A stretch of DNA of 64,000 bases, from the IMG/VR virus record IMGVR_UViG_3300049830_000172. One strand, given 5' to 3'. The notes under the pieces are model-generated. The model was not told where the DNA came from. It was given only the letters and a program-made list of their open reading frames with translations, and did no database searches. This stretch comes from an uncultured virus (IMG/VR IMGVR_UViG_3300049830_000172). Lineage: Duplodnaviria; Heunggongvirae; Uroviricota; Caudoviricetes. Of the stretch, positions 3,863 to 63,325 are shown piece by piece; within the stretch, counting starts at the first letter, position 1, and every line of letters begins with the position of its first letter. Both the position numbers and the translations under genes were made by a program.

Positions 3863-3990
3863 GGTAATACTCCTTAAAATCTATGCTTACTGCATTCATA
3901 TGTTTCATTTAGTATTTTTCAGTGGGTTTTGACACACTAAAAATACAAAAACAATCATTAAATTTCAACTCGTGCAAATTCAATGATTGT

Positions 3991-35130: not shown

Positions 35131-35709
35131 ATGAAAACATTGGCTTTCACGGGGCATCGCCCAAAAGACCTTGGCGGATATGATGAAGATAATCCAACTG
35201 CGCTAAAAGTTCAACGTCAATTAAGAACGATGATTATTCAGGCTTATGAATCGGGATATCGTACTTTCATAACAGGCATGGCAATGGGCGTTGACCAATG
35301 GGCGGGACATTGTGTGGCTGATTTAAAGCCAGAGCATCCTGATATTAAGTTGATAGCAGCGATTCCATTTGTAAGTCAACCAACTGTTTGGACACTGGGA
35401 AGCAGAGCCTCTTGGCAAGTTATATTATCAAATTGTGATGAGATTTATGTTGTGGATACTAACCCTAATGAAATTATTTCAATGAAAGATGTTCTAAGAG
35501 ATTCAAAAGTGCCGTCTGAAGACCCGAAATATTTGATTTCCAAGAAGTTGAACGATAGAAATAAATGGATGGTTGATAGAGCGGATTGTATGTTGGCGGT
35601 TTGGAGACATACTAAGGGTGGAACTGGAAATTGTGTCGAATATGCTATTTCAAAGGGCAAAACTGTCATTGCTTACAATCCAGACGATGATAGTGTTGTA
35701 AAATTATAA
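35131..35709 (+). CDS. SLOG superfamily YspA-like (DUF1273) protein
   Basis: AFTGHRP, FITGMA.GVD.W, RNKWMVD, GGT.NCV.YA. Confidence 0.85.
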   Translation: MKTLAFTGHRPKDLGGYDEDNPTALKVQRQLRTMIIQAYESGYRTFITGMAMGVDQWAGHCVADLKPEHPDIKLIAAIPFVSQPTVWTLGSRASWQVILSNCDEIYVVDTNPNEIISMKDVLRDSKVPSEDPKYLISKKLNDRNKWMVDRADCMLAVWRHTKGGTGNCVEYAISKGKTVIAYNPDDDSVVKL

Positions 35710-35717
35710 GGAACACC

Positions 35718-36020
35718 ATGAGTTATAACATGAAAGAAGAGGCATATGATGCCCGAATGCAACCACTCGTTGAACAACTAGCAAGCTTAGCCAAAGAATA
35801 TGATATTTCACTCATTATAGCAGCAGATTGTGGGCGAGATGACTTTGACCGCCCCATAGTGGCGTCTACAGTGCTACTGTTCGAAGATTGCCATGAAGCC
35901 ATTATAGATGCAAAACATTTGTTGTTTGACGGATATCGTCTTGTTCCACCGCCAGAAGAAGAAGATATTCCTAGTGAATTGATATTAAGTGAGGGTATAC
36001 TTCCTAATCATGAGCTTTGA
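35718..36020 (+). CDS. Hypothetical protein
   Basis: 100-aa ORF with SD. Confidence 0.65.
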   Translation: MSYNMKEEAYDARMQPLVEQLASLAKEYDISLIIAADCGRDDFDRPIVASTVLLFEDCHEAIIDAKHLLFDGYRLVPPPEEEDIPSELILSEGILPNHEL

Positions 36021-36651
36021 TGTAGCCGAATTTATAAGTGAGTCGAACTTAATCGACAGACAACCAAATTACTTAGAAACACACTGGATTCCAGGCGCTA
36101 AGCCAGGAGACCTAATGTTCGACAATCAAATGAACGCTTACAATTTGGCGTTAGATAAAGTAAAGGAACACAATCTCACCGGAAGCGATGTTTTAGATAT
36201 TCACCGAGAACTTAGTCGTGGAGTTGATTTCTTCGAATTGCGCAACATGTCTGGTGTGTATCGTCGTGTAGACGTATATCTTAATTCTCCGCGTGGGAGA
36301 ATTACATTTGCACCAGTTGGACAACTTAAATGGTTGATGGATAATATTTGGACTGGATTTTACGCAGACTGTATTAAGGAAGCTGAAACTGCCGATAATG
36401 AAACCAAGGAAAGACTAGCTTATGAGATTCATGATTTGTTTGAATGTATTCATCCTTTCATTGATGGAAATGGAAGAACTGGTCGTATATTATTGAACGC
36501 CGCACGAGTGCAAATGGGCTTAATTCCTGTCACAATCTTGTATAATACAAGAGAGAAGTATTACAATCATATCAATGCCTTTCGCAACGCAAAGTATGAC
36601 ATAACAGTGTCTAAATATGGCACGCCAAATGATACAAAAGAGGCCGAATAA
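36010..36651 (+). CDS. Fic-domain protein
   Basis: Canonical HPFIDGNGRTGR; ESN.I near the N-terminus. Confidence 0.9.
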   Translation: MSFDVAEFISESNLIDRQPNYLETHWIPGAKPGDLMFDNQMNAYNLALDKVKEHNLTGSDVLDIHRELSRGVDFFELRNMSGVYRRVDVYLNSPRGRITFAPVGQLKWLMDNIWTGFYADCIKEAETADNETKERLAYEIHDLFECIHPFIDGNGRTGRILLNAARVQMGLIPVTILYNTREKYYNHINAFRNAKYDITVSKYGTPNDTKEAE

Positions 36652-37367
36652 TGAAAACATATTACGTAACACCGTCAGACATCACATTCCTTTGGAGTGA
36701 CTGTCCATGCTGCTTTTACCGCAAAGTAGCCCAAGGTATCCACCGACCATCTGGGATTTTCCCAAAAATCTTTAATCGTATCGACAGGGCAATGAAAAAT
36801 TGCTATGTTGACAAAAACCTAAGAGATTTCAGCCCGGACTTCCCTGATGCAGTTTATAAATATCCAGACCAATGGGTGCAAAGTAAGCCACTCGTCGTGA
36901 CTGGAAAAGATATTCAAATCGTATTCCGTGGCAAAATCGACGGATTGCTTGAATACTCCGAAAAAGGAGCTGACGGAAAGCCAATTATGGGCGTCCCAGA
37001 CCTTAAGACGACAGAAGTAGATGATAATGTAACACCAATGTATGGATTGGCACTTCACACATATCTCTACTGTCTGGAAAATGCAGCAGATGGCGAGTTT
37101 AGCGCACATAATGTGGAACGACTCGGCTTGGTTGTTTTTGAGCCTAGTGAATACGAGCATATGGCTGGAGAAGAACCAAAACTCAATGGCATTCACTACT
37201 GGATAGAATTTGAAAAAGATATGGAGTCATTTAAAGAATGGATGAAGACACTTGCCAGAGTTCTGAGCGCAGATGCTCCACCAGAGCCAACAAAAGGATG
37301 CGGTTACTGCAATCTCTTAGAGAATCAAATCAGAAAGCAGGAATCCGCAGAAACAAAAAGCGCGTGA
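36651..37367 (+). CDS. PD-(D/E)XK nuclease (RecB/Cas4-like)
   Basis: CPCCFY, GKIDGL, DLKT, terminal CGYC. Confidence 0.75.
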   Translation: MKTYYVTPSDITFLWSDCPCCFYRKVAQGIHRPSGIFPKIFNRIDRAMKNCYVDKNLRDFSPDFPDAVYKYPDQWVQSKPLVVTGKDIQIVFRGKIDGLLEYSEKGADGKPIMGVPDLKTTEVDDNVTPMYGLALHTYLYCLENAADGEFSAHNVERLGLVVFEPSEYEHMAGEEPKLNGIHYWIEFEKDMESFKEWMKTLARVLSADAPPEPTKGCGYCNLLENQIRKQESAETKSA

Positions 37368-37843
37368 AAACAAGACAAACATATCAAGGGAAGAAAATCA
37401 ATCTACTTGTACTAAGTAGAGCGCATGTAAGTCTAGAGGAACACACTCCCCTTGAACCTCATATATTAATCTCCATCACCGACCCGCACTTTGGTGAACC
37501 AAGAGTTGATTGTGGAGAAGCTATACTTTCAACCTCAGAGCAACGCAAAGATGTTCTGAGGCTTAGTTTTTTTGATATCAGTGAAACTATTGGTAATACA
37601 ACGCCTATATCCACTTCGCAAGCTGAAGAAATATTTCAATTTGTATCAAAGTGGAAAGATGAGGTGGGTTTAATTGTAGTCCATTGCGAAGCTGGCATCT
37701 CTCGCTCGGCGGGAGTCGCGGCAGCTTTATCAAAATGGCTAAATGGCGATGATATGTTTTTCTTCGAAACATATTGCCCAAATAATTTGGTTTATACTCG
37801 CGTTCTACATGCGATTTACGGAGACCCGTGGGCGCAAAAATGA
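37364..37843 (+). CDS. Protein tyrosine/dual-specificity phosphatase-like protein
   Basis: ISITDP, F.DI, VHCEAGISRSAG (CX5R), PN..V; GTGA overlap. Confidence 0.85.
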   Translation: MKTRQTYQGKKINLLVLSRAHVSLEEHTPLEPHILISITDPHFGEPRVDCGEAILSTSEQRKDVLRLSFFDISETIGNTTPISTSQAEEIFQFVSKWKDEVGLIVVHCEAGISRSAGVAAALSKWLNGDDMFFFETYCPNNLVYTRVLHAIYGDPWAQK

Positions 37844-37935
37844 TTTGCGAAGCGCCCTTAATTTCTTTTATCAAGACACACATCATTTCTTCTTAACACG
37901 AAAGCGAGATAAGATTATGGAGTATACTAGCTGAT

Positions 37936-38454
37936 ATGCAAAGAAAACTCTTGATGCTCGACATTGATGGCGTTCTTAACGACCATAGAACATTGGCAAA
38001 TGGCTACTCGCAAATGAAGCACAAATGTGTTCTGGAGCTTTGTAGAATCTTAGATGAATGTCCAGATGTTAATATCATCATGTCTTCAGCATGGAGATAT
38101 ATGATGTTCGGAGAGATACCAGCCATCACAGAGAAAGGCATGGAACATATAATGTGCCTATTTGGTGCCCCGTATTTCTCCATACACGGACGAATCATTG
38201 GCAGAACGATATCTGACGAAGCAATGTGTGTTCAGCTCGGGATATCGGAGCCTGACGTTGAATTGGACTATTTGTGGTTGAAAGACAACGGGTGCTTATT
38301 GAGAAGAGAGCAGATTTTACTTTCGGCGCAGAATCATCAGTTTGTTGTACTTGATGACCTTGACATAGAAATGCCAGAGTTAGTAAGAACTGACGGCAAT
38401 GTCGGTTTAACTAAAGCTCTGGCGAATCAAGTGATTAAGCTTTTTCAGAATTAG
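37936..38454 (+). CDS. HAD-family phosphatase (Swiss-army-knife RNA repair type)
   Basis: LDIDGVLN, SSAWR, VVLDD. Confidence 0.75.
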   Translation: MQRKLLMLDIDGVLNDHRTLANGYSQMKHKCVLELCRILDECPDVNIIMSSAWRYMMFGEIPAITEKGMEHIMCLFGAPYFSIHGRIIGRTISDEAMCVQLGISEPDVELDYLWLKDNGCLLRREQILLSAQNHQFVVLDDLDIEMPELVRTDGNVGLTKALANQVIKLFQN

Positions 38455-41638: not shown

Positions 41639-41985
41639 CTTTGTGCTCCAGGAAGTCCACTCAACGTATCACCAGATAAGCGTCTCACCAACTGCTCCCT
41701 TTCTTGATAACGAGATGTTAATTCATCTTGCCACTTTTTGTAAAGAGCAATTGTGTTGGCGTTCCAACGCCCCATGTCAGCACCGCATCCATCACGAATC
41801 TTTGTGATTTCATTTTCTATAGATGTGATATTTTGATATTGAGCGGCAAGTAATTCTTTTCGAATTTCCGTCTGATTGATATTTGCTGTTTGAATTGGGT
41901 CAGCCGTAGCTGGCCCGCAGCCAGCTATCTGACAGAAGAAAATGATTGCAGTTATTACAAACATTAGAGATAAGAATGTTTTCAT
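41635..41985 (-). CDS. Lipoprotein, paralogue 2
   Basis: Lipobox IAGC; shares RK.LL.AQ..W..Y..Q..L.S.Y.ER.QL with its neighbour. Confidence 0.65.
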   Translation of the reverse strand: MKTFLSLMFVITAIIFFCQIAGCGPATADPIQTANINQTEIRKELLAAQYQNITSIENEITKIRDGCGADMGRWNANTIALYKKWQDELTSRYQEREQLVRRLSGDTLSGLPGAQR

Positions 41986-42650
41986 GATTTTTCGTTTATT
42001 TTTTCTAGTCTTGCTAAGAAACGGTCAAGCCCAATGGCAAAGCCGACGCCCTCAGCGTATGTTCCGCCGCCAACGACTTGTCGTTGAGCGCCCATGTCTG
42101 GAATCTCAATCTCAAATCCATCGCCAACATAATATGACAATCCGCGTTGTGCGCTTTTGTTTACCACCAAAATGTCCATTGGAACAAAAGCAGTAAGCAT
42201 TTCAGTTGCCATATCAATAAGCTCGTCTATGCAATTTCCACGAGGATTCAATACCTCGACGCCAAATTGCGAAAACTCGCGATATCTTCCAGATTGTGGC
42301 TGTTCGTAACGCCAACATCTTGTTTCGTAAAACAACTTGATGTCTTTGTCGTACTTGTATTTTTGAGCAATTAACTGACATGTAGCCGTTCCTTCTGGGC
42401 GTAAACAAATCTTACGACCCTTTTTATCTTCGAAACGATACATTTGACGCTCAACAAGCTCTTCGCCAACTTTGTCAGTGTAAATCTCTTCTTTTTCAAT
42501 GGACGGCAGGGTGATTTCCTGATATCCACGAGCAAGAGCAATGTCCGCCCATGTATTAATGAGTTTACGGCGAGTAGCAGCAAGGTCGCCACATAAGATG
42601 CGTGTTCCCTTAACTTGCTTATCCTCTAACTTAATTTCACCGTTAATCAT
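41982..42650 (-). CDS. Minimal histidyl-tRNA synthetase-like catalytic domain
   Basis: KGTR, LRPEGTA, WRYEQPQSGRYREFSQFGVE, RGLSYY, GGG.Y, GFAIGLDR; no anticodon-binding domain; ~222 aa. Confidence 0.8.
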   Translation of the reverse strand: MINGEIKLEDKQVKGTRILCGDLAATRRKLINTWADIALARGYQEITLPSIEKEEIYTDKVGEELVERQMYRFEDKKGRKICLRPEGTATCQLIAQKYKYDKDIKLFYETRCWRYEQPQSGRYREFSQFGVEVLNPRGNCIDELIDMATEMLTAFVPMDILVVNKSAQRGLSYYVGDGFEIEIPDMGAQRQVVGGGTYAEGVGFAIGLDRFLARLEKINEKS

Positions 42651-43197
42651 CAATTTCTTCCACAGGTTTGATAGTACCGAACGTTCCAGTCTCAGAGCCA
42701 ACTCGTGTTGCCACTCCATTATCGAAAGTATGCTCGATATGTCCAAGCGCGGGAATATTAATCGTGTATTGAGCTGTCGTTGTGTCAACAGACAATATAA
42801 AGCCGTCATATTCCACACCTCTTACTTTTACAAGTACGGCATCGCCTATGTTCTTTTGAGGAATTATCTGATTGTCAACCACCCAAAGCTTGACAGCTTC
42901 ACGATGAGCCCTGTCGATAAAAATAGTATATGAATCCAAAATGTCAACCAATTCTGAATCTGGCTCCCACATTGAATATTCAAGGCTTCGAGCAAGTTGA
43001 TATCCGTCTTTCGTATAACTATTGTGACCAATGCATTTTTTAAGTTCTGCTCGAACACCTTCGCGCTCTTCATTTGGATAATTAGCTTGTCCCGAGGATG
43101 CTGTTACCCAGTCCCATACTGATGGCATTAACAAGTCAATAGCTTGTTCGAAAATTGCGTCGTCGCTTTCTCTAGGACGCGATGGTTTTACGTTCAT
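42643..43197 (-). CDS. Hypothetical protein
   Basis: ORF in the operon; DGYQLA..LE...W.PD. Confidence 0.65.
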   Translation of the reverse strand: MNVKPSRPRESDDAIFEQAIDLLMPSVWDWVTASSGQANYPNEEREGVRAELKKCIGHNSYTKDGYQLARSLEYSMWEPDSELVDILDSYTIFIDRAHREAVKLWVVDNQIIPQKNIGDAVLVKVRGVEYDGFILSVDTTTAQYTINIPALGHIEHTFDNGVATRVGSETGTFGTIKPVEEIDD

Positions 43198-43999
43198 TAA
43201 ATATCTCCTTTGCATGTAGTAATGAGTCTAGCTCAAAAGATGCGTCCAAATATTCAGTTGCTGCATTTACAATCAAGCTGTCATCAGTGTCTCGCAAACC
43301 ACCCTCTGCATCCCAAAACAGAAATGGATATTTTGCCATAACTGGTATTAGATTGTTGATAGTTTCGCATTTTAAACCCCCAGCAACGCCAAGCTGATAA
43401 TCCTCTTGGTCAAAATGAGGGGCTAGCATTTTGATAGTCGTTTGAGCATCAAAAGCCTTGCCGCGACCACCGGATGGGTCAATTAACAAATAATCAATAA
43501 CTCCAGCAACTTGATATTCTTTCACTACTGTATGAAGCAACTTCGGAACGCTGCTTTCAATTTCATTTTCGAATCTGCGCATTGCTCCACCACTACATTG
43601 GATAACAAACTTGTGATTCGGGAGTTCTTTCTTCACTTCTTTAAGCATGTCAATATCCGGCCAAACAATATTTAGCTGAAATCCATGACAATTTTCTCCA
43701 CCGATTTCAGCCGCGTCTAGCAACTGCTTTACTAGCTTTGTTTTGTCGTCTGTGACATAGTGAATCATATTCAAACATCGAGAATCATTTGTGAAAATAT
43801 CCTTAATGCTGTTGTAATGTGGATATCGAACTGGATATTTATTTGTCCCACCATTAATAGTTTTCGATGACAATAAAACACCCACCATAAATAGGCGCTC
43901 GATTTCAGCGGGAATCGCAGATAGACATGTTAATACGTCAGCATTGCGAGTAAAGCCAGTTATTCCGATGTAAGGTTTATTTTTGTTCACAAATGTCAC
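43172..43999 (-). CDS. TIM-barrel protein, TrpF/PRAI-like
   Basis: GFQLN, LLIDPSGGRG, GVAGGL, WDAEGGLR. Confidence 0.55.
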   Translation of the reverse strand: MTFVNKNKPYIGITGFTRNADVLTCLSAIPAEIERLFMVGVLLSSKTINGGTNKYPVRYPHYNSIKDIFTNDSRCLNMIHYVTDDKTKLVKQLLDAAEIGGENCHGFQLNIVWPDIDMLKEVKKELPNHKFVIQCSGGAMRRFENEIESSVPKLLHTVVKEYQVAGVIDYLLIDPSGGRGKAFDAQTTIKMLAPHFDQEDYQLGVAGGLKCETINNLIPVMAKYPFLFWDAEGGLRDTDDSLIVNAATEYLDASFELDSLLHAKEIFNERKTIAS

Positions 44000-44003
44000 C
44001 AGT

Positions 44004-44660
44004 TTAATATTCTACCCTAAAAACATCCCCTGAATCTACAAGGGAATTGTCTGGTATTCGAACATTATTGCAATACAACAATTCTTGAAGAGTTTTCATA
44101 GCAACGGCACAACGCAATTCATCACCGCGTGCTTCATGGTCTACGATTTCTCGAACCAAATCTACAATCTGGTCGCCAATGTCACTACTTGGATTATCCG
44201 CATCACGCATCCCCATTTTTGTCATTTTTAGATTGTCGAAAGATATGTCTTCAAGCGTGACGACGTGTGTTGTGGAAACACGAGGCTGGCGACATAAGGT
44301 TATTTCTCCTACGCCTTTCTTACCTTCTGTGATGCCAATAGACCAACCACTACCCATGTGCTTTTCACGATAGTCGTATAAAGCCTGCAAACCATATCGC
44401 GTGAAAGCGAAGTCAGCGTACAAGCCAGTGCCCTTTGCACGCAAACCATAAACATAACCAAAGAATGGCCAGGTGAAAATTTGGTGTTCTAACATCATCG
44501 GAATATAATCCTTGAAACTTGCCGCCCACATAATCAACTGATGACTGTGAATCTGCCCGAATTTATCTGGATACACTCCAGCCTCACATACGTGAATGTC
44601 TTCCCATGTTGTAACAATGGGCGCTAAAAGATTTGCTGGCGGTAATGGAATTAGATTCAT
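44004..44660 (-). CDS. Hypothetical protein
   Basis: 218-aa ORF. Confidence 0.65.
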   Translation of the reverse strand: MNLIPLPPANLLAPIVTTWEDIHVCEAGVYPDKFGQIHSHQLIMWAASFKDYIPMMLEHQIFTWPFFGYVYGLRAKGTGLYADFAFTRYGLQALYDYREKHMGSGWSIGITEGKKGVGEITLCRQPRVSTTHVVTLEDISFDNLKMTKMGMRDADNPSSDIGDQIVDLVREIVDHEARGDELRCAVAMKTLQELLYCNNVRIPDNSLVDSGDVFRVEY

Positions 44661-44989
44661 GATATTTTCAAGTGATTTAATGGCGCATCTTTATCGTGAG
44701 ATAGCAAATGAAGATATGAAAGATTTTCATTTTTAGCTATTTTAATAGCATCGGCTTTTCGCATTTCTATCAAAGTGAGCTTAAATTTATCTGAACCTTG
44801 CCAACTTTCTCCGTCTGCCTTGGAAAGAAAACAGCCAATACCTAAACCATATCGTTCATATGTGAGCTTTGCCCATTTTCCATCAAAACATTTTGCAACA
44901 TAGATGGTTTCCGGGAATGATTTAATATGCTCGACAACATTTAGATGCCGAGCATAGATTCGTGAAGTAATTTCTTTTTCTCTGTCCAT
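44657..44989 (-). CDS. Hypothetical protein
   Basis: Start MDREKE after SD AAGGA. Confidence 0.6.
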   Translation of the reverse strand: MDREKEITSRIYARHLNVVEHIKSFPETIYVAKCFDGKWAKLTYERYGLGIGCFLSKADGESWQGSDKFKLTLIEMRKADAIKIAKNENLSYLHLLSHDKDAPLNHLKIS

Positions 44990-44997
44990 AGTATTCC

Positions 44998-46236
44998 TTA
45001 GATTAATTTTGCAAATCGTCTTTTTCCAACTTTCAAGTATTTTCCGCGCCAAGCACCAATATTAGCAAAACTATCAACATTGTCAATTTTATTGCCATCA
45101 AATTCAACTGCTCCGCTTTCGATTAAACGCTTGGCTTCACTGTTTGAAAGAGCAAACCCTAGCTCAACCAACAAGAGATAAACTTTCAGTGTTTCACTGT
45201 CTGCGAGAGAAAGTATCATTTCTGGCGCTGTTTCTTGCCAATTGCGATTAGTAAATGTTTTGTTAAACTGCTCCATGGCAAATAATGCACTGTATTCATT
45301 ATGACACATTTCGACAATGTTGAAAGCGAGTTTTAGTTTCAAATCTTTTGGATTTACACCCGATTCCATGTCTTTTTTTGCATTCAGAAAGCCATCAAAC
45401 ATCAAAAGCTCCCACCAGTTGAGAATCAATTCATCTGGAATCGACATTACCTTACCAAACATATCTGTTGGTTCGTCGCGGATTGAGATGAAGTTCCCAA
45501 GTGATTGAGACATTTTGCGAGTGCCAAACCAACCAGTCAACAAGGGTGTTAAAATCACTGCTTGCGGATTCACACCAGCTTTCATCATGACATCTCTGCC
45601 AAATAAACAATTCAACCGCTGGTCGGCACCGCCAAGCTCAACGTCGCATTGTAAGTAAAGCGAATCATTACCTTGAATGACCGGGTATAGGATTTCATGC
45701 AAACCAATCGAATTGTTTGATTTTAATCTGGAATCAAAATCTTTTCGCTCCAAAATCTGCGCAACAGTCACTGATGAACACATTTCTAAGAACTCTTGAG
45801 TGCTTGTTTTTTCCCATAGAGCGGAATTCCAAAATACATGTAGCTTATCGGAACTCATGTCCAAAACGTTTTCAAATTGACCAATTAAAGCAAGAGAATT
45901 CAAACGAATATCTTCTTTGTCAAGTTGCTTGCGAGACACAGATTTGCCACTTGGGTCGCCAATTTGAGCAGTGAAATCACCCATAACAATAGTGACTTTG
46001 TGTCCCAAGTCCTGAAGCTTGCGCAAACGAATCAATGACACCATCCAGCCAAGATGCAATTCGGTCGCAGTTGGGTCAACACCGAACTTGATTATCAAAG
46101 CGTCTTTTGATAAGAAACGCTGCACTAAATCGGATGACGCATTCGTTTCGCTGGTAATGACCTCACAACCATCAAAGACTTTTAAAAAATCATCTACCTT
46201 TGCAGCCACGCTCATTGCTCTACTAATGGAACTCAT
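44998..46236 (-). CDS. tyrS: Tyrosyl-tRNA synthetase
   Basis: G.DPTA..LHLGW, GDFTA.IGDPSG, YP..QG.D, ELGG.DQ, KMSQSLGN, C-terminal S4 domain. Confidence 0.92.
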   Translation of the reverse strand: MSSISRAMSVAAKVDDFLKVFDGCEVITSETNASSDLVQRFLSKDALIIKFGVDPTATELHLGWMVSLIRLRKLQDLGHKVTIVMGDFTAQIGDPSGKSVSRKQLDKEDIRLNSLALIGQFENVLDMSSDKLHVFWNSALWEKTSTQEFLEMCSSVTVAQILERKDFDSRLKSNNSIGLHEILYPVIQGNDSLYLQCDVELGGADQRLNCLFGRDVMMKAGVNPQAVILTPLLTGWFGTRKMSQSLGNFISIRDEPTDMFGKVMSIPDELILNWWELLMFDGFLNAKKDMESGVNPKDLKLKLAFNIVEMCHNEYSALFAMEQFNKTFTNRNWQETAPEMILSLADSETLKVYLLLVELGFALSNSEAKRLIESGAVEFDGNKIDNVDSFANIGAWRGKYLKVGKRRFAKLI

Positions 46237-54572: not shown

Positions 54573-54613
54573 TAAGTACAGTATACTAGAAACAAATCAG
54601 TTTTGAGGAAAAT

Positions 54614-57039: not shown

Positions 57040-57330
57040 ACGTAAATTATACGTCAATAACTGCGCGAAATTTGGGAAAGGGGTACTAAAACTTAGATAC
57101 CATACCCCCTCCCCCTATGCGATTTTTGAGATTTATTTAGCTTCAAAAAATTTATAAAATTAAATTTTTAGAAATCGAGAGGCAAAAAGGGAATTCGATA
57201 TTTTTTAATACCCACCCCTATCCGTGTGTAGCTAATTGTCGAATGGGACTCCGAAAAAATTGGCGGGTGGTGGAACACCCTTCCTTATGGAACCTAAATT
57301 GTGAGTGTACCGGGGGGGTAGTTGGCCGTG
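57040..57330. other. Non-coding convergence zone with G/C runs; possible genome terminus/packaging region
   Basis: No ORF; ataccccctccccct, AT-rich core, gggactcc, ccgggggggtag; lies at the border of the promoter-cassette region. Confidence 0.35.
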
Positions 57331-57465
57331 TGGCCTATGCTGCCTATAGTGCTTATGCTATGGTGCCGCCTTGGTACACATACACATAGACGGGTGGCTT
57401 GCCAGTCGTAGGCAAGCTCCTGTCATAGACTGGACTTAATCGCCAGTCAGTGGGTTGCTACCACT
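57330..57465 (-). ncRNA. Candidate small RNA A (three tandem hairpins)
   Basis: TCCTCA-N16-CGATAT motif with +1 about 57465; only a 5-codon ORF; stems AGTGG/CCACT, GACTGG/CCAGTC, GCTTGCC/GGCAAGC; 3' end uncertain. Confidence 0.4.
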
Positions 57466-57483: not shown

Positions 57484-57636
57484 CTAAACGTATTGAGGAA
57501 TTTTTGTACGTGTTCCCCAGCCGAGCTGAATGTCGTAGGGAACGTGGAAAGCCTTGGGTTGCGTGAAGCCGAGTCGTGGGTTTCGCCCCGTAATCTTGTA
57601 CGGCTTGCTGATTATACCATTTCTGCATGTGAACAT
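57484..57636 (-). other. Promoter-driven transcript: 50-aa leaderless ORF or structured RNA
   Basis: ATG at +1 of a GCGTAT-type motif (MFTCRNG...PQYV); several nested stems are also possible. Confidence 0.4.
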
Positions 57637-57671
57637 AGTAATATACGCTCACATGAATTAAGTTTGAGGAA

Positions 57672-57833
57672 TTAAAAGTGGAAGCCGAGATAATGGCAGA
57701 CGACGTAAAGCCAGCCAAAGAGGGTATGGAGCGCAGTCCAACCGATATCGTGGGTGATATCCCAAGTGACGATGCCAGCCCACACCATGCCGATGAGCGA
57801 GAATAAACCAATGCCAGAAGATTTTGATTCCAT
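57672..57833 (-). CDS. Small membrane protein
   Basis: MESKSSGIGLFSLIG...W...H..FGWLYV; variant promoter motif upstream. Confidence 0.65.
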   Translation of the reverse strand: MESKSSGIGLFSLIGMVWAGIVTWDITHDIGWTALHTLFGWLYVVCHYLGFHF

Positions 57834-57870
57834 ATTATCTATATATGGAATCAAAATCTGTTTTTGAGGA

Positions 57871-58200
57871 TTATTCGTCGTCGTCATCGTCGTCGTCGTG
57901 AAGGAATTGAATCCCTCGCGCTAAACTTGCGCCAAAGTCGCGTCCACATTCCTTGAGGATATCCGGGCCGCTGACGTGGAGTCCTTGAATATCATTTAGA
58001 TAGGTGTCGCCCAAGTCCGAACCGCCGTGGGTGTGTGGTGAGGAAACTTCACAAAAAGCTATGGCATAATGGTTTTTTGCCGCTAGTTCTGGCCGTTGGT
58101 TGAGTTTGAGAATGTTCCAAGTCCAGCCGTTTGTTGATTTATAGACTGCGTAAGGGTCGCCTTGCTTTCTTGTTTTTCCGTATGGGTTTGATGAAGCCAT
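57871..58200 (-). CDS. Hypothetical early protein (leaderless)
   Basis: ATG at +1 of the motif; acidic tail. Confidence 0.75.
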   Translation of the reverse strand: MASSNPYGKTRKQGDPYAVYKSTNGWTWNILKLNQRPELAAKNHYAIAFCEVSSPHTHGGSDLGDTYLNDIQGLHVSGPDILKECGRDFGASLARGIQFLHDDDDDDDE

Positions 58201-58243
58201 GAATATATACTCAGGTGGGCGAAAACTTTGAGGAAAATTGGGA

Positions 58244-58489
58244 ACGGCGAGTTTTTCTTAACTCGCCGTTTTGTGCCCGTCCATTTGTCGTTTTGGATTC
58301 ACCATTGAATCCATACTCATGAGTCATTGGGAATTTGCCAATATTTCCTTATTGTCTGAACGTGTCGCGATTCACGTTTCTGGCATGGCGAACATTAAAA
58401 GTTTTTGACCGTGTTGGTTGTTGACGTTTTATTACTTCATGATGCTCACTCCCTTATCTAGTTGCTAGGCGCTTCCAATATTGGGCGTT
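58244..58489 (-). ncRNA. Candidate structured RNA B (~245 nt)
   Basis: ACGTAT-type motif; no long ORF; hairpins AACGTG/CACGTT, TGGATTCA/TGAATCCA, ATTGG/CCAAT; terminal hairpin AACGGCGAGTT/AACTCGCCGTT. Confidence 0.5.
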
Positions 58490-58605
58490 GAGTATATACG
58501 TCGTTCGTTGCTTGGTTTGAGGAATTTAGCTTTTGGGCGCGTGCCGCCTTATTTCGCCAAGTCTTATTCCCGGATGTTCTAGTCCGGGAATTTTCCTCAA
58601 AAGTC

Positions 58606-59085
58606 CTAGTGGACTTCGAGGATATTTTCGACGCTGATTCCGACGAACGGTACTTGTCCCTTGTCGGCTAGTTCTTCCTTGTCCTGTGGCTTGGACTTTT
58701 CAGAGGCTTGGAGGTACATTTCTACGTCTGCCTTGTCGCAAGGTTCGCCGTCCAAGTACCATTGTACTTTTGGTTTGGCTCCACTTAGGGGCATAGGCAA
58801 GTACACCTTGTCAGTGTTACCACGCCAAAACTTGACGTTGCCAACCATGAATGACTCCTTAATATGGCTTGGAAGCTCAGGGGCGGCTCGTTCTCCGTCT
58901 GCGACTGCATTTTTGACTGCGGCTCGTGCTGAGTAGTCACAAAGTTGTCCAGTCATAGTTGATTCCTTATCAACTACCAGGTTCTTAAAAGCGGCTAAGA
59001 GCTTGGCTGGTCGTTTCATTTTGATTGAGAAGAAGGCTCCTGTTTTTCGTCCTTCGAGTGCTTTAGAGATGCTTACTGCGTCCAT
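58606..59085 (-). CDS. Hypothetical early protein (leaderless)
   Basis: True start MDAVSISK at +1 of the motif. Confidence 0.75.
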   Translation of the reverse strand: MDAVSISKALEGRKTGAFFSIKMKRPAKLLAAFKNLVVDKESTMTGQLCDYSARAAVKNAVADGERAAPELPSHIKESFMVGNVKFWRGNTDKVYLPMPLSGAKPKVQWYLDGEPCDKADVEMYLQASEKSKPQDKEELADKGQVPFVGISVENILEVH

Positions 59086-59193
59086 GTATATATACTCAGG
59101 TGAGAGAAAATCTTGAGGAAAAAATAAGACTTGGCGAAATAAGGCGCGTGTAAAATTTTTGGATATTGAGGAATTTTGATATATTGACACAAC

Positions 59194-59308
59194 AAAAAGC
59201 CCAAGCTATTGCCTGGGCTTATTTGCGTAAGTTCTCGTTTCCTGTGCCTGTTTCGGGGAGCTGTATTTCAAGCTTCTTCATGTTTCTTGTTTACTTGTTT
59301 CTGCTTAC
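59194..59308 (-). ncRNA. Candidate small RNA C (~115 nt, A-rich, GAAAC repeats)
   Basis: ACGTAT-type motif, terminator AAGCCCAGG/CTTGGGCTT with T run; only a 20-codon ORF without SD. Confidence 0.4.
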
Positions 59309-59351
59309 ATTTATATACGTTGTTCTTTTTAAGTCTTGAGGAAATTTGGTC

Positions 59352-59524
59352 ACAACCCACTGAAGACTACTGACTCTATTTTATTTTCCGCTTTTTTGCG
59401 CGGGTTTTATTTTTGTCGTCTCCACCCATGCTCTACAGTCCTACGCATATCTTTTGGTATAAGCGATATCATGTTCCTAGACATGAGCCCTTTCGGGTGA
59501 ACACCTCATCTTCAGCAGGTTGTT
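59352..59524 (-). ncRNA. Candidate structured RNA D (~173 nt)
   Basis: GCGTAT-type motif; 15-bp closing stem ACAACCTGCTGAAGA/TCTTCAGTGGGTTGT with G-U pairs; internal CCC-GAAA-GGG and CATGT/ACATG hairpins. Confidence 0.6.
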
Positions 59525-59536
59525 AATTTTATACGC

Positions 59537-59755
59537 TTATGCGACTTCTTCTTGAGGAAATTCTTCTTGCATCGCTGGAAACTCATTGGCTGGGATTACA
59601 TAGCGTGGCATTGTTTTAGGAGGTGTTACACCTGCGACTCCTTCAATGTGAACGCTTCGCCCGCATTGACATTGCACCATTAAGACGTATCTTTGCCCTC
59701 TGGGGCGGTTTTTAACCGCCTTTTGGACTACTGCGCCACATTTAGGACATTTCAT
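59537..59755 (-). CDS. Small Zn-ribbon protein
   Basis: MKCPKC...CQCG; ATGA overlap. Confidence 0.65.
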   Translation of the reverse strand: MKCPKCGAVVQKAVKNRPRGQRYVLMVQCQCGRSVHIEGVAGVTPPKTMPRYVIPANEFPAMQEEFPQEEVA

Positions 59756-59922
59756 AGATAGAACTCCGAATCTGCGCCGTTTTGGATTTCGCCTAAGATT
59801 TTGGCTTCTACGCAACCCTGAGCGTCTGAGGTTGTCATTCCTTCGAGCCCGTCCATCTCTAGGACTTCAACAGCTTTCTTGTATTTGTCCCAGTTCATTC
59901 GAGAGTAGTCAATATGTACCAC
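59752..59922 (-). CDS. Small hypothetical protein (leaderless GTG)
   Basis: GTG at +1; EGMTTSDAQG. Confidence 0.65.
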   Translation of the reverse strand: MVHIDYSRMNWDKYKKAVEVLEMDGLEGMTTSDAQGCVEAKILGEIQNGADSEFYL

Positions 59923-59955
59923 TCTTATATACTGAGATGGATATAAAATTTGAGG

Positions 59956-60073
59956 AAAAATGAGAATGCCCAAGTCATTACTGCTTGGGCTCCTTCTCCA
60001 TATACTGGTCAGCATGGTGTCGTATCAAGAGATTATGGTTTAGGCTCCTTACGTTTCCTTCTCTATTGCTGCC
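59956..60073 (-). ncRNA. Candidate small RNA E (~118 nt, AAGGA-rich)
   Basis: GCGTAT-type motif; hairpin GCCCAAG/CTTGGGC then T run; four GGA motifs. Confidence 0.45.
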
Positions 60074-60112
60074 ATCTATATACGCGCTTGAGTCCGTTGG
60101 TTGAGGATTTTT

Positions 60113-60403
60113 TTAAGCACAGGCAATTTCTTCTTCAAACTTTTGTGCTTCTTCGCAGGCTTTTTCAGCTTCACGGATGTTATCCTCGGTTGGTTGGCGT
60201 CCGTCCACCATGAACAATTCGTAGATATCCAATTTCTTTGCAGATGGTACACCAGAGAGAAACAATTTGTATGCTTCTGATTGTCCGTCTCTTCGCTTCC
60301 AAAGATAACCGCCTTCCTCGTAGTGTGCAGGAAATGCCGTGTCTTTTGAGTCGTATCCCTTTGGTCTCGTTGGTGCTAATATTTCGAGGGCGATTGTTGC
60401 CAT
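60113..60403 (-). CDS. Hypothetical early protein (leaderless)
   Basis: ATG at +1. Confidence 0.7.
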   Translation of the reverse strand: MATIALEILAPTRPKGYDSKDTAFPAHYEEGGYLWKRRDGQSEAYKLFLSGVPSAKKLDIYELFMVDGRQPTEDNIREAEKACEEAQKFEEEIACA

Positions 60404-60480
60404 GATTATCTACTCATATGAATAGATAAGTATGAGGAATAAATATTCCTCATACCAGTGAAATGTTTCAGTATATAGAC

Positions 60481-60681
60481 ATGACAGACAAACAAATAGT
60501 TTTAGGATTTATAATCGGAGTTTGCTTGATTATCCTAAACATCTTGAATGAGAAAAATAAGCAGAGGCAAAGAGAAATAGAGGTGAATTCCTCTTTTCGA
60601 AGGATTCTTGATAGACTCGTTGATGCTGGAGAAATAACAAAAGAGAACGCAGACAATATGTATGTGAAAAGTTTGAAATAA
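60481..60681 (+). CDS. Small membrane protein (leaderless, divergent)
   Basis: Plus-strand motif TCCTCA-N16-CAGTAT-N6-ATG; N-terminal TM. Confidence 0.7.
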   Translation: MTDKQIVLGFIIGVCLIILNILNEKNKQRQREIEVNSSFRRILDRLVDAGEITKENADNMYVKSLK

Positions 60682-60770
60682 GCCTACGGGCTTGTTTCAA
60701 TTTGCCGTTAGGGTCGCGGGCGTGCCGCCTTATTTGTCCAAGCCTTAAATTTCTTTAAGGCTTGGAGTTT

Positions 60771-60992
60771 TTAGTCCCCGTCGTAAGTACCTGGCCCATT
60801 TTCTTCTTCATATTGGGCGCGGGTTCCCATTGGCATTGTTTCTCCGCAACCGTCGCGGAAGCCACTAACAGCGCATGGTACACACATTACGCCAGCGTAG
60901 ACACCAAAGCTATATCGCTCGTCTATGTCTTTTCGCTTCTTGTCACATCGAGGGCATACGCCGCTTGCTAATACGTCACTGAGATAACTCAT
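60771..60992 (-). CDS. Small Zn-binding protein (leaderless)
   Basis: CPRC...CVPC; ATG at +1. Confidence 0.7.
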   Translation of the reverse strand: MSYLSDVLASGVCPRCDKKRKDIDERYSFGVYAGVMCVPCAVSGFRDGCGETMPMGTRAQYEEENGPGTYDGD

Positions 60993-61007
60993 GATTTTAT
61001 ACTCTGC

Positions 61008-61157
61008 TCAGTAAGTTTTTTGAGGAATTTGGATTGAATGACTTCCTGGGCAAAATGTTTCCATGGTGCCATTATCCTTTATTCTTTTTGGGGAATGTGG
61101 ATAGATTGCATTATCAATATCAGTGCGGCATTTTTTACCGCACTGTGGACAAATCAC
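61008..61157 (-). CDS. 49-aa Zn-binding microprotein (not in the ORF track)
   Basis: GTG start 1 nt after the upstream stop: MICPQCGK...PH...CPGS. Confidence 0.55.
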   Translation of the reverse strand: MICPQCGKKCRTDIDNAIYPHSPKRIKDNGTMETFCPGSHSIQIPQKTY

Positions 61158-61158
61158 C

Positions 61159-61386
61159 TTAGAGTCCATATTTCGCCCTGAGTTCCATCACAATATCAGG
61201 TCGCTCGTTTAAGAGTTGAAGCAATCCCGTATTGTTGAAAATGAAGTGATGCTCAATACCGTGAACTTTCAGGTATTCACCCGTGAGAGTAGTTTGGCGA
61301 GGAGCGTCACAAGGTTCGTTCATATCTTCGAGAACAGCTCGCATTTTGTCTGCTACTGTCATGTTGTCGAAATCTGTGTTTGACAT
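61159..61386 (-). CDS. Hypothetical early protein (leaderless)
   Basis: ATG at +1. Confidence 0.7.
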   Translation of the reverse strand: MSNTDFDNMTVADKMRAVLEDMNEPCDAPRQTTLTGEYLKVHGIEHHFIFNNTGLLQLLNERPDIVMELRAKYGL

Positions 61387-61421
61387 GATTATATACTCTT
61401 CTCAGTAATTTTTTGAGGATT

Positions 61422-61739
61422 TTAGAGTTCTATCTCTTCGTACTTCGTGACTTTGTGATGCACCGTCAAGCTTGCGAGGTTTACGGTATATTCTTTTCTG
61501 AGAAACACTTTCAACGTTTCAACACATGCAGCTTTCACAATTACGCCATCAATTTGTCCAAACTCTTCTTCATCAAAGTTAACAACATACTCTTTGACGC
61601 GATGGATGTTTCGCATATAAACTTTCATTTCATCTTGTGAAAATGATGTCTTATTTGCTAAAAGAGTGAGCAACCAATCATTTCCCGCGTCTACGGCTTT
61701 GAGTTCTGCTTCGCTCCAGAGTCTTACTGTGATGGACAT
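61422..61739 (-). CDS. Hypothetical early protein (leaderless)
   Basis: True start MSITVR at +1. Confidence 0.7.
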   Translation of the reverse strand: MSITVRLWSEAELKAVDAGNDWLLTLLANKTSFSQDEMKVYMRNIHRVKEYVVNFDEEEFGQIDGVIVKAACVETLKVFLRKEYTVNLASLTVHHKVTKYEEIEL

Positions 61740-61872
61740 GATTATATACTCATATGAGTTAATAAGTTGAGGAATAAGTTCGGCGCGTGCCGCCTTATTT
61801 GTCCAAGCACTAAAAATTTCAGACACAAAAAAGCTCACCTTTCGATGAGCCTTTTCATTTTGGGGATTTTGG

Positions 61873-62202
61873 TTAGTAGGCGGTTGGATATTTACCGTTT
61901 ATGATTTGAAGCGTTTGTCGGTCAAGTTTGGATTGATTGCTTTTTCTTGCTTTTTGTTTTTTGGGGATAAAGCTCCAAAGTGCCATGCAAGCCAAGCCAA
62001 GAACCACAAGTCCAGCCAAACCTTCAACTGCGTAGATTCCATAGACGAACAATCGACCGATGATTGTTGGGGTTCCAGATGAGTCGTTGGATAGGAACGG
62101 GTCTACCCATTTGATGGTCGATGCAACGATAGCCGTGAGGATTGTTGCGAGTCCGATGATTGCGAGGCTTCCAACTGTTCTGTTGATTGCTTGATTGTTC
62201 AC
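61873..62202 (-). CDS. Two-TM membrane protein (leaderless GTG)
   Basis: GTG at +1; terminator-like hairpin near 61827-61857. Confidence 0.7.
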   Translation of the reverse strand: MNNQAINRTVGSLAIIGLATILTAIVASTIKWVDPFLSNDSSGTPTIIGRLFVYGIYAVEGLAGLVVLGLACMALWSFIPKKQKARKSNQSKLDRQTLQIINGKYPTAY

Positions 62203-62239
62203 TCTTATATACTCCTATGGGTGAAAATGTTGAGGAATT

Positions 62240-62509
62240 TTATGAGAAGTAAGCGTATTCTACGCGGGCGGTGGTTACAGTGTGCCAGCCCATAGTAATG
62301 AAAATTGGGTAATCGTATCCAATGACTTCCTCATTGATTTTACCATCATGTCCGCAGTACATACCATCGAGGGCAGTGGCAACGTACTTACTTATTTTAG
62401 CAGCTTCATCTAACCATTGTTGCAACGGGACATTAGTTCCGATTGCGTTTAATTGTTTGTTCAGACTGTTGAGCAGACTTTTCTTTGTCTGTTTTTTCGG
62501 TGCGTCCAT
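62240..62509 (-). CDS. Hypothetical early protein (leaderless)
   Basis: True start MDAPKK at +1. Confidence 0.7.
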   Translation of the reverse strand: MDAPKKQTKKSLLNSLNKQLNAIGTNVPLQQWLDEAAKISKYVATALDGMYCGHDGKINEEVIGYDYPIFITMGWHTVTTARVEYAYFS

Positions 62510-62519
62510 GATTATATAC

Positions 62520-63008
62520 TCAGAAGAACACATTATTTGAGGAAATTCTCTTGGTGAAGTCAAAGTCTTTATGAGAATGAACTAATTCAATTTCAGATGT
62601 CAGTAAAGGGCAAACTTTGTGACAACCATATATTGCTTTATATTCTCCATCTATTGCAAGTACAAAAAGCGAAGCATAATTTTCCTCGTTTTTGTAATAG
62701 AATCCATTGGCAAGTAGGAATTCTCCGTAGGTTTTATCTTTTGTCCAAGTTTTATCTTTTGCGGAATTGTTAAACTCTTCCAAGTCAATGAATGGAGGAT
62801 TGTGATGATTTATGAAATCTGATTCAAAGATTTCTCTGAGATTTTTTCTCCATCCAGCGGTTAAATTGTCGCTTGGTGAAATGTTAAATGCTTTGAGTCT
62901 TTCAACCATTTCCGAAGTATTGTCTTCGCCAATACTATTCATGATGGATGTAATTTCTTGAGAATCTGTGATTAAGGCAAACTCATCACTCAATTCATTA
63001 ACTTGCAT
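62520..63008 (-). CDS. Hypothetical early protein (leaderless)
   Basis: ATG at +1. Confidence 0.7.
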   Translation of the reverse strand: MQVNELSDEFALITDSQEITSIMNSIGEDNTSEMVERLKAFNISPSDNLTAGWRKNLREIFESDFINHHNPPFIDLEEFNNSAKDKTWTKDKTYGEFLLANGFYYKNEENYASLFVLAIDGEYKAIYGCHKVCPLLTSEIELVHSHKDFDFTKRISSNNVFF

Positions 63009-63088
63009 GATTATATACTCACATGAATAAAGAAGTTGAGGAATTTCCTGGCGCGTGCCCCCTTATTTCACCAAGCACTAAAAAAATT

Positions 63089-63163
63089 TGGTCGGGGATA
63101 GAAGATTCGAACTTCTGATTTCTTGCTCCCAAAGCAAGCGCCATACCGCTTGGCTAATCCCCG
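63089..63163 (-). tRNA. tRNA-Pro(TGG)
   Basis: CGGGGAT/ATCCCCG acceptor stem, anticodon arm CTTGC-TTTGGGA-GCAAG, TTCGAAT T-loop, encoded CCA. Confidence 0.93.
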
Positions 63164-63288
63164 GTAAGAACTTTTCCATTTCAACCCTGGGCTCTATCAG
63201 GAGCTTAGTCTTGCTACTTTGCTGATACTTTCACTGCATCGGTCACTCCAGGGCATCCCTGACAACTTTTGCACTGGATTCGTTCTAT
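63164..63288 (-). ncRNA. Candidate structured RNA F, co-transcribed upstream of tRNA-Pro
   Basis: GCGTAT-type motif; GCCCTGG/CCAGGGT, TGTCAGGG/TCCTGATA and GATGC/GTATC pairings. Confidence 0.45.
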
Positions 63289-63325
63289 GAATATATACGC
63301 GATTGGGAATTTGCTTTGAGGATTT

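Follow-up and report, generated by a model that had tools for sequence, protein, structure and literature searches.

A conserved gene for a structured non-coding RNA with a tRNA-style 3' terminus in an uncultured phage

The DNA analysed here, a stretch of 64,000 nucleotides from the uncultured virus recorded as IMGVR_UViG_3300049830_000172 (the window), carries on its minus strand a real, conserved gene for a structured RNA of a new family with a tRNA-style terminus, which is best read as a stand-alone non-coding RNA. The 173-nt stretch 59352-59524 folds on the minus strand with a minimum free energy (MFE) of -52.9 kcal/mol, against -34.9 ± 3.5 kcal/mol for 200 dinucleotide shuffles (z -5.09), none of which folds equally well (0/200); the plus strand of the same stretch reaches z -3.20. 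An earlier note, made from the letters by eye, had described a 15-bp helix closing the RNA, and this helix is present: 59523..59509 (ACAACCUGCUGAAGA) pairs with 59366..59352 (UCUUCAGUGGGUUGU) on the minus strand, through two G-U pairs that are indeed specific to that strand (U·G and G·U at pairs 7 and 8, which become A·C mismatches on the plus strand). RNAfold extends the helix by a sixteenth pair, between U 59508 and G 59367. Both hairpins reported inside it are also found, CCC-GAAA-GGG with its tetraloop at 59497..59488 and CAUGU/ACAUG at 59485..59470, the latter extending to 6 bp at 59486..59469. A further proposal survives in part: TTCACCC (59501..59495) is complementary to GGGTGGA (59427..59421) as stated, but in the window's register two of the seven pairs fail in each of the homologues described below, so that the alternative pairing or pseudoknot built on this complementarity is not supported. 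The view that the RNA belongs to no recognisable family agrees with Rfam, which gives no match at gathering score or at E <= 10 in 59100-59700; the only match of Rfam 15 in the window is a tRNA at 63092-63163, and nothing is found over the homologues.

Relatives were reached through the open reading frame (ORF) of 159 amino acids (aa) that follows the RNA: a 28-member protein alignment led to six metagenome loci, which were compared with the window locus by blastn. Two of the six fetched loci, both in contigs of related phages (L128 and L133), contain the RNA, with matches at L133:3707-3916 (73.5% over 219 nt) and L128:1024-1186 (73.9% over 165 nt) and full extents of L133:3737-3918 and L128:1017-1205. 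Each homologue is preceded by a promoter of the type found in the window and followed directly by a copy of the 159-aa gene, and both fold as well as the window copy (L128 z -5.21, L133 z -5.01). A consensus structure of the three sequences was obtained with RNAalifold and slightly pruned to 36 pairs in six helices; together with the conserved sequence elements it gives the following parts of the RNA.

59347..59524, minus strand: proposed mature RNA, 178 nt from 5' A to 3' ACCA; a conserved block
59508..59523, minus strand: 5' strand of the closing helix P1, 16 pairs
59352..59367, minus strand: 3' strand of P1, with a mid-strand bulge in the homologues (1 nt in L128, 2 nt in L133)
59438..59502, minus strand: four-way-junction domain of the RNAalifold consensus, closed by P2
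59502..59499 with 59441..59438, minus strand: P2, GUUC with GGAC; 4/4 pairs kept, two of them through wobble changes
59488..59497, minus strand: P3 hairpin, CCC-GAAA-GGG with a GNRA tetraloop; GAAA loop invariant
59469..59486, minus strand: P4 hairpin, 6-bp stem, loop CUAGGA (CUAGAA in the homologues); loop conserved
59444..59465, minus strand: P5, variable hairpin; a hairpin in all three, with unrelated sequences
59421..59437, minus strand: purine-rich linker UGUAGAGCAUGGGUGGA, unpaired in the consensus; AGAGCAUGGG invariant in 3/3
59372..59420, minus strand: A-rich domain, with P6 enclosing AAUAAAACC, P7 and GGAAAAUAAAA; from consensus and invariance
59420..59418 with 59374..59372, minus strand: P6, one double change
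59403..59388, minus strand: P7 hairpin, stem CCGC/GCGG; stem and both A-rich flanks invariant
59347..59350, minus strand: ACCA, one nucleotide past the helix (A in the homologues but G in the window), with AAUUU next in the window; ACCA invariant in 3/3

The pairing of these parts is kept across the three sequences, in part through compensatory changes. Standard pairs fill 107/108 pair cells of the consensus (99.1%, against 93.4 ± 1.3 in shuffles, 0/500 as high), and 9/36 pairs are changed on both sides (2.9 ± 1.4 in column shuffles, again 0/500 as high); when the structure is slid by one to three columns, 0-1 double-changed pairs and only 28-45% pairing are left. The earlier note had proposed a homologue search with covariation analysis as its check, and named homologues without compensatory changes as the outcome that would count against it; the two homologues found show nine compensated pairs. 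P1 contains five of these, P4 has two, and P3 and P6 have one each. In P1, the five make up 5/16 pairs, three more vary on one side, and 1/48 cells is unpaired across the three sequences. The change in P3 is C-G to U-A in L128 and that in P6 is G-C to A-U, while the stem of P4 runs through the series CAUGU/ACAUG, CACGU/ACGUG and CGCGU/ACGCG. P5 keeps its hairpin form (-2.5 kcal/mol in the window, -8.0 in L128 and -6.5 in L133). In the linker, the invariant AGAGCAUGGG is followed by a GGAGG-like run; the loop of P4 contains the self-complementary CUAG. From the start to ACCA, the window copy is 70% identical to each homologue and the homologues are 81% identical to one another, while identity in the flanks falls to 49-52% upstream, mostly in the promoter boxes, and to 29-32% downstream. 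The copies of the 159-aa gene beside the RNA are 61.9-66.6% identical at the DNA level, and the RNA is thus at least as constrained as its coding neighbour.

Transcription of the RNA appears to be directed by a promoter of a type that is repeated throughout this region. The window contains 20 copies of the motif TTCCTCAA, where 3.8 ± 1.9 would be expected (0/100 shuffles reach 20), and 18/20 are on the minus strand; 14 minus-strand copies lie within 57,500-63,043, a region of small minus-strand ORFs. In 13/14 of these, it is followed after exactly 15 variable and two to three semi-conserved bases by a GTATA-type box (consensus GAGTATATAATC), and at least 6 of these 13 complete promoters, which lie between 57.5 and 63.1 kb, have an ORF whose ATG directly abuts the box. 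The two boxes read as a bipartite early-type promoter, from which transcription would start at or a few bases from the ATG; this suggests early mRNAs that are leaderless or nearly so. Genes elsewhere in the window mostly lack a Shine-Dalgarno sequence and often show a GTATAnT-like box 4-12 nt before their ATG. In phiKZ, the best-studied jumbo phage, leaderless transcripts were not seen (PMC8244752), and phiKZ therefore offers no model for this promoter grammar. Further members of the same TTCCTCAA-15 nt-GAGTATATAATC family stand outside the early region at 54610 and 46272. In front of the RNA, the promoter consists of two elements.

59552..59559, minus strand: upstream box TTCCTCAA; from motif enrichment and its constant distance to the helix
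59525..59536, minus strand: downstream box GCGTATAAAATT (the GTATA box), 15 nt past the upstream box and aligned with GAGTATATAATC

The upstream box overlaps the last codons of an upstream 72-aa zinc-ribbon-like ORF (stop 59537-59539), and the spacing between the boxes and the helix is identical in all three phages (3/3), the upstream box of L133 being TCCTCAA. Since ORF ATGs directly abut the GTATA box in at least six of the promoters above, the RNA would start at the A at 59524, give or take a few nucleotides, one base before the helix.

At the other end lies a feature that the earlier note does not mention: the three RNAs read G-ACCA-AAUUU (window), A-ACCA-UUUUU (L128) and A-ACCA-UUUAU (L133); in all cases P1 is followed by a purine opposite the 5' A, then by ACCA and a U-rich stretch, beyond which the sequences diverge. 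The tRNA arrangement of terminal helix, discriminator base and CCA is found in 3/3 of them, as a likeness of the end only. The window's own tRNA-Pro gene ends in CCCCG-ACCA (63092..63089) followed by AAUUUUUUU, so that its CCA is encoded in the gene, and the AAUUU trailer of the RNA equals the start of the trailer of this gene; the 3' strand of the RNA is not a copy of the tRNA-Pro 3' end. In bacteria, RCCA pairs with the RNA of RNase P, of which 4.5S RNA is a natural non-tRNA substrate (PMC11143913), and RNase E cuts 1-3 nt past an encoded CCA, after which exonucleases trim (PMC2190699). Because the helix followed by RCCA matches the pairing used by RNase P, and because an encoded CCA sets both the site of RNase E cleavage and the end of exonuclease trimming, the 3' end of the RNA is probably made by the tRNA-processing route. 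No transfer-messenger RNA is called by ARAGORN in the window, L128 or L133, and the RNA contains no conserved frame. The tRNA-Pro gene itself (Rfam match 63092-63163) is also preceded by a promoter of this family and by a leader some 130 nt long (63164-63294, minus strand); considered as a sister RNA, this leader was rejected, as it is not significantly structured (z only -1.5).

The assignment to the minus strand holds: the three sequences contain seven G-U cells that would mismatch on the other strand, where only 101/108 cells stay paired, and the promoter lies on the minus strand in 3/3. It bears on a reading of the locus as a feature of the DNA or of the other strand, such as a plus-strand terminator, a site of replication or recombination, or an antisense transcript. 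The plus strand of the P7 region does read as a weak terminator-like site (59387-59404, followed by TTTTATTTTT), which is invariant in the homologues; the plus strand, too, folds better than its shuffles (z -3.2), and the cumulative GC-skew of the window has its minimum near 54-56 kb. However, the stem of this site is just 4 pairs long, the 2 kb upstream contain neither a gene nor a promoter on the plus strand, and a terminator would leave the covariation in P1, P3, P4 and P6 unexplained, which together with the G-U pairs and the minus-strand promoter makes this reading very improbable. That the locus encodes a small protein is hardly credible. There are short ATG-led frames in the window copy (10 and 17 codons), and the antisense frame is open for 52-65 codons; but L133 has ACG in place of the first ATG, the length of the second frame varies among the three sequences (17, 29 and 7 codons), and the antisense frame, on a strand so poor in A that few stops are expected by chance, switches register between homologues. 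Neither strand holds a reading frame conserved across the three, open stretches differing in frame and length, and the indels among them are of 1 and 2 nt rather than multiples of three.

The immediate surroundings of the RNA on its 3' side contain two transcription units.

59197-59343, minus strand: small transcription unit between the RNA and the 159-aa gene, inserted by comparison with L128 and L133; its promoter is at 59343, with a start-stop (ATG-TAA) where transcription is predicted to begin, a 20-codon ORF at 59281..59219, and a strong terminator at 59220-59197
58606..59085, minus strand: 159-aa gene with its own leaderless-type promoter at 59120; the next gene after the RNA in 3/3 phages

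The copies that follow the RNA are the window gene, L128 1286-1762 and L133 4001-4477, while other gene order differs; the family is multi-copy, with two copies within 8 kb in both L128 (1286-1762, 4001-4477) and L133 (1607-2083, 4001-4477). This regularity invites a reading of the RNA as a cis-acting element of the early cassette, that is, as a leader, processing or insulating structure of the 159-aa gene, for example a site at which RNase III or RNase P cuts transcripts apart, or a structure that reduces read-through into the promoter that follows. Its position before a 159-aa copy in 3/3 phages, despite the shuffling of other genes, is in line with such a role, as are the lack of a terminator between the helix and the next promoter and the build of the region from repeated promoter-plus-hairpin modules, like the PeSL cassettes of T4-type phages (PMC2839356, PMC4122927). 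In L129, where the 159-aa gene is 54% identical, a different and shorter element (3876-3960) stands in place of the RNA, namely an 85-nt fold with an 11-bp closing helix (z -2.3) behind a promoter-like site of the form TTTCCTCAT/GTATACA, which the covariance model of the RNA (R1, below) does not match. Yet the 159-aa gene needs no leader, because it has a complete promoter of its own directly before its ATG in 3/3; other copies of it occur without the element (L128 4001, L133 1607, L129-L132, L150 and L151); and the invariance of AGAGCAUGGG, CUAGRA, GAAA and the A-rich flanks exceeds the needs of a cutting site or roadblock. We consider a cis role unlikely for these reasons, although it is the main rival reading.

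The same adjacency, kept in 3/3, would also be expected if the RNA were the partner of the adjacent protein in a phage ribonucleoprotein, the protein binding the A-rich or purine-rich strands. The 159-aa protein has 28 relatives at 46-99% identity in a large metagenome protein collection and no tblastn match in GenBank phages. Its AF2 model (pLDDT 91) shows a helix followed by five strands (residues 55-116), for which Pfam and PADLOC give no match, Foldseek none in the PDB at E <= 0.001, and the ESM Atlas nothing usable. The best structural neighbours of the model are WYL domains (Z 4.1-4.8) and Hfq/Sm proteins (Z 3.3-3.8), weak resemblances to small barrels that bind single-stranded nucleic acids, and the RNA offers two invariant A-rich tracts. 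On the other hand, Z values below 5 fall into the 'common arrangement' range of the structure tool, Foldseek is silent, and most copies of the 159-aa gene have no such RNA beside them. The barrels are thus a lead for an RNA-protein pair and not evidence for one, and a dedicated pairing of the two seems unlikely.

What we infer from the sequence about start site, 3' processing, stability, action in trans and partner can be put together as follows. The early-type promoter would start transcription one base before the 16-bp helix that joins the ends; inside this helix the RNA would form the four-way junction, with the GAAA, CUAGRA and variable hairpins, the purine-rich single strand, and the A-rich domain with P7. 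Host tRNA-finishing enzymes would cut and trim the 3' end at ACCA, and RNase P would trim any copies extended at the 5' end by read-through. With the 5' triphosphate start buried at the helix and the 3' end protected, the product, about 178 nt long, would be stable and resistant to nucleases and would build up early in infection. Its action is probably in trans and would work through binding to a protein, which may be a host factor or the adjacent 159-aa product; the elements that a partner could read are those that are invariant, namely the GAAA tetraloop, the CUAGRA loop, AGAGCAUGGG with the GGAGG-like run, and the two A-rich tracts flanking P7. That the RNA is, in full, a trans-acting and protein-binding stable RNA made early in infection is the most likely mechanism in our judgement, although about evenly balanced between true and false.

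A bolder reading, which we take to be improbable, is that the RNA mimics an acceptor end, the helix with its ACCA being engaged, and perhaps charged or modified, by tRNA enzymes, for which the phage tyrosyl-tRNA synthetase and the truncated HisRS-like core, both encoded in the window, are candidates; a HAD domain of RNA-repair type is encoded near them. The RNA might then act as a decoy, drawing off host factors or defences directed against the 3' ends of tRNAs, or it might be a new kind of carrier for an activated amino acid. In a related reading, the palindromic CUAG loop could let the RNA associate with itself into an RNA-only assembly. Two further ideas were set aside. A sponge in which the GGAGG-like linker titrates ribosomes fits poorly with phage genes that mostly lack Shine-Dalgarno sequences, which suggests that the host does not rely on them either; and a hammerhead-like reading of GAUGAGG...GAAA lacks the second core element, with Rfam silent.

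Several observations weigh against a stand-alone, tRNA-finished RNA of this kind. Directly after the helix the minus strand has no intrinsic terminator; the next one, at 59220-59197, lies past a second promoter and the 20-codon ORF, so that the primary transcript may be longer than proposed. The likeness of ACCA and trailer rests on a single tRNA gene, ARAGORN finds no cloverleaf beyond tRNA-Pro in the window and nothing in L128 or L133, and the consensus of the three contains no T-arm or D-arm, the rest of the RNA being unlike tRNA. The GGUGUYC strand has two competing partners that three sequences do not separate: in the RNAalifold consensus it pairs with GGAY to close the four-way junction, which is compatible with P6, whereas the single-sequence MFE folds of L128 and L133 pair it with GGAGCC near the 3' end (59377..59372), which leaves one C·A in the window, P6 holding the only double change that bears on the choice. 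The covariation counts come from three members, two of them 81% alike, and thus from few independent events, with a shuffle control that ignores relatedness. The four runs that contain the locus are all DNA, with identical sequence. Finally, the RNA is absent from the visible DNA of distant carriers of the 159-aa gene (0/6 loci, and nothing convincing in three records). Despite the small number of events, the slid controls and the clean hairpin series of P4 make the fold persuasive.

The known range of the family is accordingly narrow. The covariance model R1, built from the three members, which score 195-213 bits by construction, matches only these among 23 sources (next best 12.7 bits). Six further loci searched with filters off gave only short hairpin matches (best 15.3 bits), and three whole IMG/VR records of 159-aa relatives (39-43% identity) only a 41-nt fragment at E 0.56; the distant phages without the RNA use other promoters and genes led by Shine-Dalgarno sequences. 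By blastn, 50,697 GenBank phage records contain no DNA match to the window locus or the L133 locus. In IMG/VR, two patterns derived from the RNA gave 0 matches, promoter patterns gave at least 117 and 9 single-copy matches, which is about chance by estimate, none with a second copy of the motif, and single-protein searches with the 159-aa, 72-aa and capsid-like genes returned nothing useful. An A-rich pattern hit 15 loci in genome contigs, all of which reach at most 12.7 bits with R1 and were taken as chance.

We take the source to be an uncultured large freshwater phage, probably of jumbo size. Where covered, the window DNA recurs letter for letter in four freshwater or freshwater-sediment DNA runs; the three of these that are not the source show 0 differing letters wherever they cover the RNA and therefore carry no information on variation. 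Distant relatives in IMG/VR are 52-112 kb records rated 15-31% complete, which implies genomes of roughly 350 kb, and the closest relatives of the window polymerase among GenBank phage polymerases are less than 36% identical. By PHROGs and Pfam scans, the window is made up of phage replication and nucleotide-metabolism genes, including the following.

Replication genes: DnaE-type polymerase, DnaB-like helicase and its loader, primase, UvsX-like recombinase, RecJ-like nuclease
Other genes: capsid-like gene, tyrosyl-tRNA synthetase (44998-46233), truncated HisRS-like core (41982-42815), one tRNA-Pro
74-3862, minus strand: ribonucleotide reductase large subunit, split by an intein with a LAGLIDADG homing-endonuclease domain (Pfam)
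35131-38454, plus strand, and 41982-46236, minus strand: cluster of tRNA/RNA-related and host-modifying genes, namely YpsA SLOG domain, Fic/DOC, PD-(D/E)XK nuclease, dual-specificity phosphatase-like protein, HAD domain of RNA-repair proteins, truncated HisRS-like class II core (277 aa) and tyrosyl-tRNA synthetase
57040-57250: AT-rich non-coding stretch between the capsid-like gene and the early region, adjoining the GC-skew minimum; possibly an origin or genome-end region
58245-58490 and 57255-57465, minus strand: two more promoter-driven stretches without a notable ORF
58541-58561, 60722-60742, 61787-61807 and 63055-63075, plus strand: copies of the 21-nt box GTGCCGCCTTATTTCNCCAAG

The 21-nt box occurs four times in the window, where 0 copies are expected, every copy shortly before an early promoter; with its 4-bp GC hairpin and T-run it resembles a small terminator, and in combination with the promoter it recalls the PeSL promoter-terminator cassettes. 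In the homologues forward copies lie downstream of the RNA (L128:1218-1240, L133:3932-3955). Both stretches without ORFs end in a hairpin and a T-rich run (57280-57265 by scan, near 58245-58275 by eye), and the one at 58245-58490 holds a mini-ORF of two codons with a Shine-Dalgarno-like site; the two stretches may be additional non-coding RNAs, and R1 does not match them (best 10.1 bits).

To our knowledge, freshwater giant phages have hardly been studied, and structure or role is established for very few non-coding RNAs of phages. The RNA described here is compact, with a clear promoter, a supported fold, invariant loops and a tRNA-style end. If it is stable and made by tRNA-finishing enzymes, it would provide a defined molecule for tests of host takeover or of conflict over tRNA. 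The promoter grammar, with its apparently leaderless genes, should be useful in annotating these phages.

Among known RNAs, 6S RNA shares the length of about 180 nt and a closing stem formed from both ends. It is a rod with one central bubble, whereas the RNA here is multi-branched and has no Rfam match; a decoy of RNA polymerase in the manner of 6S could nevertheless serve a phage that redirects transcription. The pRNA of phi29 also comes from a phage and is about as long; its 5' and 3' ends pair, and its loops contact other copies, for which the self-complementary CUAG in the P4 loop would be the counterpart. It belongs to small protein-primed phages, as part of their packaging motor, while the source here is a large phage with a DnaE-type polymerase and the RNA has no Rfam match at E <= 10. 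The tRNA-linked repeats or RtT RNA of E. coli (Rfam RF00391) are hairpin-rich and about 170 nt long, carry a 3' end of tRNA type and owe their release to tRNA processing; the RNA here is neither tandem nor behind a tRNA gene, and again lacks an Rfam match at that threshold. A retron msr-msd would call for a reverse transcriptase, and no family of this enzyme is found among the neighbours or other window ORFs scanned. A type III toxin-antitoxin RNA is likewise not indicated, there being no tandem repeat in the RNA itself, 59347-59524 (within 59100-59700 a single one is present, with a 7-nt unit, at 59277-59302) and no PADLOC match of the neighbours. PeSL cassettes are short composites of an early promoter and a stem-loop that recur between early genes. 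Modules resembling them surround the RNA, namely TTCCTCAA promoters and the four 21-nt boxes, and gene order is shuffled among relatives; the 178-nt RNA itself is single-copy in the window and far larger than such modules.

The YrlA Y RNAs resemble it in their long end-paired stem and multi-branched interior, and in tRNA mimicry, which here concerns the end only; YrlA of M. smegmatis is cleaved by RNase P and receives CCA (PMC4201824). The Y RNA motif GNCGAAN0-1G has a counterpart in L128 and L133 (GGCGAAG), and the window copy (GACGACA) lacks it; in Y RNAs this motif lies near the 5' end (PMC4201824), here in the middle of the RNA, and T- and D-like arms are not part of the consensus. No Ro60/TROVE gene is found among 67 window ORFs of at least 100 aa (PHROGs; 48 also against Pfam), and no TROVE domain among 11 early-region frames (9 of them further ORFs) against Pfam, within the 64-kb window. 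Also among the nearest kinds are RNAC and RNAD of the T4 tRNA region, which like the RNA here are phage-encoded small RNAs tied to the world of tRNA processing, and which are stable RNAs of unknown role (PMC3014915); the RNA here differs in having its own promoter, 3.6 kb from the only tRNA gene in the window. It is not a member of the tRNA-linked repeat or YrlA kinds, and is not counted here with RNAC and RNAD. If it is stable and made by tRNA-finishing enzymes, it would stand beside the small stable RNAs of T4 as a second, independent case.

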